Positions 27,813 to 28,986 of a stretch of DNA of 64,000 nt are shown here, in pieces. The translations under genes were made by a program, and so were the position numbers. Every line of letters begins with the position of its first letter. Position 1 is the first letter of the stretch. Below the pieces are notes generated by a model. That model did no database searches. It was not told where the DNA came from and worked only from the letters and a program-made list of their open reading frames with translations. The DNA is from an uncultured Erysipelotrichaceae bacterium (lineage in GTDB: Bacteria > Bacillota_I > Bacilli_A > RFN20 > CAG-826), in NCBI GenBank assembly GCA_900316365.1, contig ONCO01000004.1, forward strand, positions 74,918 through 138,917, read 5' to 3'.

Positions 27813-28986
27813 TCCCAGTCCCTATGACGGTGGGACTTCCCCAGGCTTTTCGTATCAAACTTTCGCGTGATTCCGTTCTTCGTCGCGGCCGGCGACGCTC
27901 GCTTTTCAGGAGAGGCGTTTTGTCATCCGCTTTCCCTATCGAGTTTTCTCCATCCAACTGGAGATGGGCTTCTTAATCGCTTCTGCGATTCTCTCGAGCG
28001 AAACCTGCCCTTATCCGAGGTCGAATCCATCTTGCTAGGTGAATCCTTGCTCAGCTCCTTAAGTCCTTGCGTTCCTAAGAGGTCTTTTCTTTCCATCGGT
28101 TCCCCGACGGCGTTTCTTGCGGGTAGTGTCCATGCCCGCCCAGTTTGTTAACAGGTCGCCAACTTCGTGAGTTGGTACCCTCTCTGGCGCAACAGTACCC
28201 GGAGGTACCTGGCTTCGTACTGACTTGACCCTTTCGGATCTAAGCCTTCTTGGAAGGACGAAGCGCCTTCCCTGGTTTGATATGGCCTTTTCCGACGGCT
28301 TACTAGTCCGTCCGCCATAACCAGCTGCAGAAGATTTCTCCTCTGGCTCCGAATGAGGATCACTTGCGCAACCCTTTCTTGAGTTCGATGTATGCTGGAA
28401 CTCCCGCCTTATCAGGCCAAACATCTTTTGATGAAAGCCCTATGCGGTTCGAGGTGGTTTTCTACGCCACCACTCAGGCTGGTGTCCAGGCCGTTTATTG
28501 GACGCCTGCTTTTCTTGAGGTCAGCCACTCAACCTCCTGGCTTGTGCGGGTGTACCGGTGAGATCGCTCCCACTGCCCTTGCCAGCATCCGAGAATACAT
28601 CCCGGGGTTCGTCTTGATTTCGGCTTTCGCCTTCATCTTCTCGCGGTCGAAGTCCAGACCGTCCGGATTGGGCCGGTTACCTTGATTGCTCAAGGACCGT
28701 ATCCGGCGCAGCTATCGCTAGCTGGGGTTCGATTTCGGATGAAGAAGCACGCTCCCTCATCTTCTTAGGACCGAATTACCAGGTCCTGAAGCTTGGCGGG
28801 TTACAATCGATTACTCGATCACCCTAGCTCCTAACAGGTGGAATCACTCCCGCCTGCGGTTCGGCTCGCTCGTCACGACACGTTCACGAGTTTCTTAGGA
28901 TCGAAGTTCCAGATCCTCCGATTTAACAGGTATCTCTTTGTTACCAAAAAGGCCCTAATCGGTTAACGCCCCGTTTCCAAGGCGTC
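27787..28986 (-). ncRNA. Large (~1.2 kb) modular structured RNA of nine ~130-nt structurally repeated units; family not recognised
   Basis: It has its own consensus promoter and terminator and no credible ORF. Stems are dense, with GNRA loops and G-U pairs that work only on the minus strand. Hairpin-AAGAA-hairpin-GAACC recurs with ~130-nt spacing. Confidence 0.85.

Follow-up and report, generated by a model that had tools for sequence, protein, structure and literature searches.

The window, that is, the whole stretch of 64,000 nucleotides analysed here, contains a 1.28-kb stretch without any substantial ORF between a gene for a RimK-type ATP-grasp protein and a gene for a phosphatase-NUDIX fusion (Table 1). 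On the minus strand of this stretch, a transcript of about 1.2 kb is predicted from the positions of a sigma-70 promoter and an intrinsic terminator, and the homologues described below are likewise preceded by equivalent promoters. This region is a stand-alone RNA gene. Gene callers predicted no gene across it on six conspecific contigs. Coding potential was rejected because the position and reading frame of the longest sense ORFs differ from lineage to lineage, and any sense ORF of at least 60 aa is absent from two of them. The very strong promoter suggests that the RNA is abundant.

No covariance model of Rfam 15, including those of ROOL, GOLLD, OLE, raiA and tmRNA, matched the RNA at the gathering threshold. 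At E ≤ 10 nothing relevant was found either, the best match being an unrelated CRISPR repeat with 23 bits, and an Rfam search of seven homologous loci gave no match. A literature search found no paper describing such an RNA, and a nine-module 1.2-kb non-coding RNA has apparently not been described so far. The only Rfam match in the window is a tRNA gene. Tandem Repeats Finder reported no repeats because the modules are too diverged from each other (about 50% identical). A direct-repeat search found only two short families, spaced 120–132 nt.

Table 1. Features of the RNA gene and its surroundings. Positions are those of the window, except where contigs of other lineages are named; z values are relative to dinucleotide shuffles, and R1 and R2 are covariance models (see text).
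Feature	Positions	Strand	Remarks
RimK-type ATP-grasp gene (rimK)	26904–27785	plus	Flanks the 1.28-kb stretch
Nine-module non-coding RNA, about 1.2 kb	27789–28986	minus	Predicted start to terminator; 1198 nt
Intrinsic terminator	27789–27816	minus	Terminators at the equivalent place in homologues
Arm, module 9	27898–27943	minus	Conserved GA-GACAAA loop; R2 26.4 bits for 27875–27943
Module 8	27944–28112	minus	Degenerate
Arm, module 7	28140–28187	minus	CACGA pentaloop, long 3' bulge; R1 50.1 bits
Arm, module 6	28272–28324	minus	Longer; UAUGG/CCAU, non-GNRA loop; z = −3.04; R1 41.3 bits
Arm, module 5	28404–28447	minus	AAAA loop in the window; z = −2.47; R1 55.5 bits
Arm, module 4	28537–28585	minus	GCGA loop, GCACA-A bulge; z = −0.81 when folded alone; R1 53.8 bits
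Arm, module 3	28663–28706	minus	GCAA loop; P2 is CGG/CCG, not GGG/CCC; z = −3.25; R1 71 bits
Arm, module 2	28788–28831	minus	GUAA loop, GCCA-A bulge; z = −2.85; R1 72 bits
Hairpin H2 and YAAGAAR tail, module 1	28891–28917	minus	Pseudoknot stem 1; equivalent element after every arm
Arm, module 1	28918–28962	minus	P1, UA/AA internal loop, GGG/CCU, P3, GUAA loop; z = −3.34; R1 73 bits
5' leader hairpin	28965–28986	minus	Ahead of module 1; in the minimum-energy fold of the whole RNA; hairpin at the equivalent place in homologues
Sigma-70 promoter	28992–29019	minus	TTGACA, 16-nt spacer, TATAAT; 12/12 consensus match
Phosphatase-NUDIX fusion gene	29071–30390	minus	Other flank; directly upstream of the RNA, same strand
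Phosphatase-NUDIX gene, L038	3012–4364
Phosphatase-NUDIX gene, L060	973–2430
Phosphatase-NUDIX gene, L061	530–1672
tRNA gene	63827–63899	minus	Only Rfam match in the window

The RNA consists of nine modules of about 125–130 nt, each of which opens with an arm and continues with an H-type pseudoknot, in which a hairpin is inserted, and a further hairpin. One purine after the arm stands a 5-bp hairpin (H2), which is 96.9% paired with double changes in all five pairs, and which is followed by a nearly invariant tail, YAAGAAR. The H2 loop, with the consensus GG-NNN-UUCG, can pair with a CGAACC further downstream, and both sides change together. Examples are UUGCUUGG/CCAAGCAA for module 3 in three lineages, and GCUUCGU/ACGAAGC, GCUUCA/UGAAGC and CGCUCC/GGAGCG for module 6. 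Since the loop pairs and covaries with the downstream segment, the element is an H-type pseudoknot with H2 as stem 1. By analogy, the A-rich tail would occupy the groove of this stem. A variable hairpin (H3) lies inside loop 3 and another (H4) comes next, both of them often GNRA-capped.

Six of the arms (modules 1–4, 6 and 7) had been quoted in an earlier note made from the sequence, and all six lie on the minus strand at the positions listed in Table 1, including the quoted letters ACCC-GCACA in module 4, AUGGC/GCCAU and AUCA in module 6, and ACCU-GUUA in module 7. Folding each arm recovered the described shape, that is, an outer helix P1, an unpaired A, a G-rich P2, a capped P3 and bulges on the 3' strand. 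The earlier note had counted nine arms in the window. Only eight could be detected (modules 1–7 and 9), and module 8 is degenerate in the window genome and in the two nearest lineages (L056 and L065). In G068, G073, L057 and L058, module 8 has a canonical GNRA-capped arm and an enlarged second hairpin. When seven arms were folded singly, five had z values of −2.5 to −3.3 against dinucleotide shuffles, and most arms also form when the whole 1198-nt RNA is folded to its minimum energy.

The claim that the helices covary held up against shuffling. In an alignment of 14 arm-plus-hairpin units from the window and one relative, made with MAFFT and with the structure written by hand, 81.4% of the cells were paired compared with 57.7% in shuffles, and none of 500 shuffles was as high. 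Sliding the partners against each other in the same alignment gave 30–52%. For 59 modules from eight lineages, the figures were 85.6% and 58.8%, in alignments (A3 and A4) that were fitted to the covariance model and lean towards its structure. The module 2 arm carries compensatory changes relative to its orthologue in G025, and in module 3 the P2 triplet is flipped to CCG/CGG in other lineages. Moreover, the length of the arm at each module position is constant within 1–2 nt despite 30–45% sequence divergence. The arms are real and under structural selection.

Each arm is made up of a 6-bp P1, an asymmetric internal loop, the P2 triplet, a 2–3-nt bulge and a 6–7-bp P3, and the consensus is 5'-U-A-(GGG)/(CCC)-N2-4-A-A-R-3'. 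Among 66 arms, the 5' strand has U at position 6 in 56, A at position 7 in 65, G at position 9 in 59 and G at position 10 in all 66. Position 8 is G in 42/66 and a purine in 56/66. On the 3' strand, C-C-(N2-4) is followed by A (62/66), A (63/66) and a purine (60/66), after which P1 closes. The earlier note had described a G-Y-Y-A-like bulge; its terminal A is conserved, as part of the A-A, and its G-Y-Y letters are variable among the 66 arms. The internal loop has one nucleotide (A7) on the 5' strand and 4–5 nt on the 3' strand in nearly all arms. The four outer pairs of P1 are 100% paired and vary widely in their letters. For U6:A, the letters are UA in 52/59 arms and, unlike those of the other P1 pairs, were never changed on both sides, which fits the non-Watson-Crick U:A of the UA_handle motif, 5'XU/ANX3'.

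In the published type-I UA_handle signature, a U:A stacked on a Watson-Crick pair is accompanied by a bulged nucleotide; X5 is a purine, and the residue immediately before it is not G (PMC2615604). The U (56/66), the A-A (62–63/66) and the R (60/66) of the arms agree with this signature. In the UA_handle turn, an adenine on the 5' side of a conserved G:C caps the second helix, and an A is bulged just 5' of X5 (PMC2615604); in the arm, these features are matched by A7-G8:C and by the second A. The arms, which are known by sequence only, thus resemble UA_handles in the conserved X-U/A-A-R, the adenine-capped G:C, the bulged A and the non-covarying U:A, and differ from them in having two to four extra unpaired nucleotides (GNN) on the long strand. 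Among unconserved UA_handle signatures in 23S rRNA, only about 35% fold as UA_handles (PMC2615604). The internal loop carries the signature of a putative type-I UA_handle beside a near-invariant GGG:CCC triplet. Two other known motifs were rejected. The equivalents of the 1b/1n and 2b/2n pairs of a kink-turn are A/A and A/U, not the G/A and A/G of tandem sheared pairs, and the bulge is 4–5 nt in many arms, whereas a kink-turn requires three. The 11-nt GAAA receptor (CCUAAG/UAUGG) does not agree with the arm consensus UAGGG / CCC-GNNA-AG. In the window, UAUGG occurs only in the arm of module 6, where the partner strand is CCAUAUCAAACC.

P3 is GNRA-capped in 40/59 arms (36 GYRA, 4 GARA and 0 GGRA). 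The caps described in the earlier note are present in modules 1–4 (32/32), module 8 (4/4) and half of module 5 (4/8), and they are absent from modules 6, 7 and 9, each of which has its own conserved non-GNRA loop. The GNRA class is kept in modules 1–4 and 8, where the second loop letter drifts, and the loop of module 5 alternates between GNRA and AAAA across lineages. Counting hairpins with stems of at least 4 bp, there are 81 GNRA hairpins in eight RNAs compared with 6.8 ± 2.4 (maximum 14) in 200 shuffles, an enrichment of about 12-fold. The distance from A7 to the tetraloop is 10–11 nt along the 5' strand in 37/39 arms, the other two being mis-picks by the script. The helix between the receptor-like internal loop and the tetraloop is interrupted by the 2–3-nt bulge on the 3' strand.

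In module 7, the arm is capped by a pentaloop conserved as C-N-N-G-A (CACGA, CUCGA, CUUGA, CAAGA), and its 3' bulge, GUUAACAAA, is unusually long. The arm of module 9 has a conserved 8–10-nt loop, GA(N)GACAAA(A), in all lineages, and a 3' tail lies between this arm and the terminator, for example GGGAAGCCACCUGAUCGAUUGGCUUGGGAGG in G068, G073 and L058. A kissing partner was sought for the non-GNRA loop of module 6, and no complementary 6-mer was found at a consistent place across lineages.

A BLAST search with the RNA against 60 relatives found one homologue only, and further homologues required a covariance model (R1, built on the arm-plus-hairpin unit, and its refined version R2). R1 identified tandem arrays of seven to eight units with 120–138-nt spacing in 5 of 58 genomes of the genus. 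It found nothing convincing across 301 genomes of the order, and R2 had no match in the class, of which 399 genomes in 218 genera were covered. Among 185,579 species representatives, a pattern scan that excluded records from the genome of the window itself gave four species records and one chance match; the records are uncultured Erysipelotrichaceae (RUG266), Bacilli and Bacillota MAGs. Four more lineages came from a scan of JGI metagenomes, which makes eight in all, and all eight are uncultured rumen or gut Bacilli of one genus. The RNAs are 54–70% identical between lineages, except for one pair at 89%. Complete copies are 1198–1225 nt long, and nine module slots are present in all eight lineages. 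A comparison of nine contigs of the species showed variation at 15 of 1205 positions. Modules at the same position are 67% identical across lineages and modules within one RNA are 50% identical. Therefore, the nine modules predate the lineages, and each has kept its own identity.

In four lineages, the phosphatase-NUDIX gene immediately precedes the RNA gene and has the same orientation; in other lineages, the RNA has different gene surroundings. The phosphatase-NUDIX gene is a core gene, present in 55/58 genomes of the genus, whereas the RNA is in only 5. A functional link between the two was rejected on these numbers, and their adjacency is probably inherited gene order. In three relatives without the RNA (G010, G031 and G024; loci L067, L068 and L069), a convergent ORF of about 300 aa follows about 35–140 nt after the phosphatase-NUDIX gene, with no 1.2-kb non-coding gap in between. 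An empty site between the same two genes was also considered and rejected, since the downstream gene in G010 is not the rimK of the window. The fusion gene, whose phosphatase part is tyrosine-phosphatase-like, is preceded by mscL.

The earlier note had suggested that the arms may dock with each other, across modules or across molecules. Class-R2 or IC3-type GNRA receptors are defined by a CCC:GGG triplet with an asymmetric loop after it, and among their members are the natural IC3 and the selected C7.34 and R(2), the latter being CCCAGCCC...GAUAGGG (PMC2275092). These receptors tolerate several GNRA loops, with either purine at the third loop position (PMC2275092). As a helical receptor, CCC:GGG works best with GURA or GCRA loops and least with GGRA (PMC6326782). 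The arms have both sequence elements of class R2, the CCC:GGG triplet (CGG/CCG or CCG/CGG in module 3) and the asymmetric loop, and in several of them the 5' strand of R(2), GAUAGGG, is found verbatim (CCGGAUAGGG). Furthermore, they share with tectoRNAs the GNRA-capped hairpin and the CCC:GGG next to an A-rich asymmetric loop, with GYRA loops in the arms. An 11-bp separation of loop and receptor is ideal in tectoRNA dimers (PMC2275092), compared with 10–11 nt in the arms. Since the loop class, the triplet and the A-rich loop match the receptor literature and the spacing is roughly right, the docking idea is partly supported and well motivated.

There are also differences. The 3' strands of R(2), C7.34 and the 11-nt receptor are unlike the CCC-GNNA-A of the arms, and no characterised receptor has GNNAA on the 3' side of its internal loop, R(2), C7.34 and IC3 being compared as far as their loop letters are given in PMC2275092. 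Unlike tectoRNAs, the arms have an added 2–3-nt bulge, and the arm unit occurs nine times in one natural transcript. The bulge between P2 and P3 may break a tectoRNA-like geometry. Modules 5, 6, 7 and 9 keep the receptor-like loop, and the GNRA cap is absent in 6, 7, 9 and half of 5; thus, any pairing of loops and receptors would not be simply reciprocal. No covariation of loop type with receptor was detectable informally, eight lineages being too few for a formal test.

We give a probability of about one half to the reading that the arms are tertiary-contact elements of a large, abundant, stand-alone RNA composed of nine non-identical folds of about 130 nt. The GGG:CCC triplet and the adjacent A-rich loop would form a minor-groove receptor for GYRA loops. 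Loop and receptor would lie about one helical turn apart on the same arm, which makes side-by-side packing possible, and the arms might then pack through loop-receptor (A-minor) contacts as engineered tectoRNAs do. Such packing would join the nine modules, or several molecules, in a single arrangement that is compact and regular. More tentatively, the nine repeats might zip through their GYRA loops and receptors into a closed ring, a solenoid or a multimeric lattice, which would be a natural single-chain counterpart of the tectoRNAs.

The same internal loop could act within a single module. As a sharp, kink-turn-like bend, the UA_handle turn might lay P2–P3 along P1 and pseudoknot stem 1, so that the GNRA loop contacts its own module; the modules would then be self-contained and the arms would link neither modules nor molecules. 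The published description of the UA_handle turn fits the arm letter for letter (PMC2615604), and P1 (6 bp), the linker and stem 1 (5 bp) together are about as long as P2 plus P3 (10–11 bp). However, the minor groove of stem 1 in an H-type pseudoknot is normally filled by loop 3, which would here be AAGAAR. The arms without GNRA caps retain the same internal loop, and no covariation of loop type with pseudoknot type was seen within modules. We regard such folding back as unlikely. Protein binding would put the conserved letters to another use. GNRA loops can serve merely as stable caps, and the UA/AA with GGG:CCC and the AAGAAR might be repeated targets of one RNA-binding protein. As a multivalent sponge or scaffold, the RNA would titrate or organise as many as nine copies of this protein. 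The recurrence of the same short motifs in all nine modules of all lineages agrees with such a role, as does the abundance suggested by the promoter, and only about half of the GNRA loops of the ribosome dock (PMC2275092). On the other hand, the number of modules and the total length are fixed across lineages that are 54–70% identical, and each module keeps its position-specific loop. Sponge RNAs vary in their number of sites, and a fixed module count with position-specific loops is unusual for them. Moreover, no candidate protein gene is specifically linked to the RNA, the phosphatase-NUDIX gene being a core gene most carriers of which lack it. A scaffold or sponge is improbable as well. A sponge of the Csr/Rsm type in particular was rejected: GGA is present only in the H2 loops of some modules, where it is due to the pairing with the downstream CGAACC, and the number of modules is fixed at nine.

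Very improbable, in our view, is a series of tandem aptamers, in which each module would bind a small molecule or ion at the internal loop or the pseudoknot and the RNA would act as a buffer or sensor. Riboswitches commonly contain pseudoknots whose third strand is A-rich. UA_handle motifs are found in ligand pockets such as those of the TPP riboswitch and the ATP aptamer (PMC2615604). However, the RNA gene stands alone, has its own terminator and is followed by no gene that it could regulate, and no riboswitch family matched it even at E ≤ 10. We know of no precedent for nine consecutive aptamers.

Several H-type pseudoknots in tandem within one transcript are also found in tmRNA (PK1–PK4) and in the tandem xrRNAs of flaviviruses. 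These have two to four units without a GNRA/receptor arm and no similarity in sequence or model to the nine-module RNA, and their functions (trans-translation and exonuclease resistance) find no support here. Large bacterial RNAs of unknown function are rare. Like ROOL, GOLLD and OLE, the nine-module RNA is a large, highly structured, stand-alone RNA of Firmicutes or rumen communities that is rich in loops capable of A-minor contacts, but it has no covariance-model match to them. ROOL and GOLLD form cages of 8 and 14 identical chains held by A-minor and kissing contacts (bioRxiv 10.1101/2024.12.08.627333), and ROOL is half the length of the nine-module RNA. Thus, whereas ROOL and GOLLD repeat identical chains, the nine-module RNA, which is in the same size class, follows another building principle, with nine old, diverged copies in a single chain.

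In its sequence, the repeated arm has the hallmarks of both sides of the RNA-RNA packing contact that is understood best. Should the arms dock, they would provide a natural periodic RNA architecture built from tetraloop-receptor units and a new natural variant of the GYRA receptor, and the RNA would be an attractive target for cryo-EM. A ring, solenoid or lattice of this kind, if formed, would be to RNA what tandem-repeat folds are to proteins, and would correspond to the ROOL and GOLLD cages, with the units covalently linked. The RNA would point to an abundant function, unknown so far, in a group of rumen bacteria whose genomes are reduced. Five JGI contigs of 1159–1247 nt (L056, L058, L062, L064 and L065) consist of the RNA alone, starting 10–17 nt ahead of module 1 and stopping at the foot of the terminator, and they are likely to be assembled transcripts. 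At its 3' end, L064 carries its own 3' region again in inverted form, as is typical of an assembly artefact.
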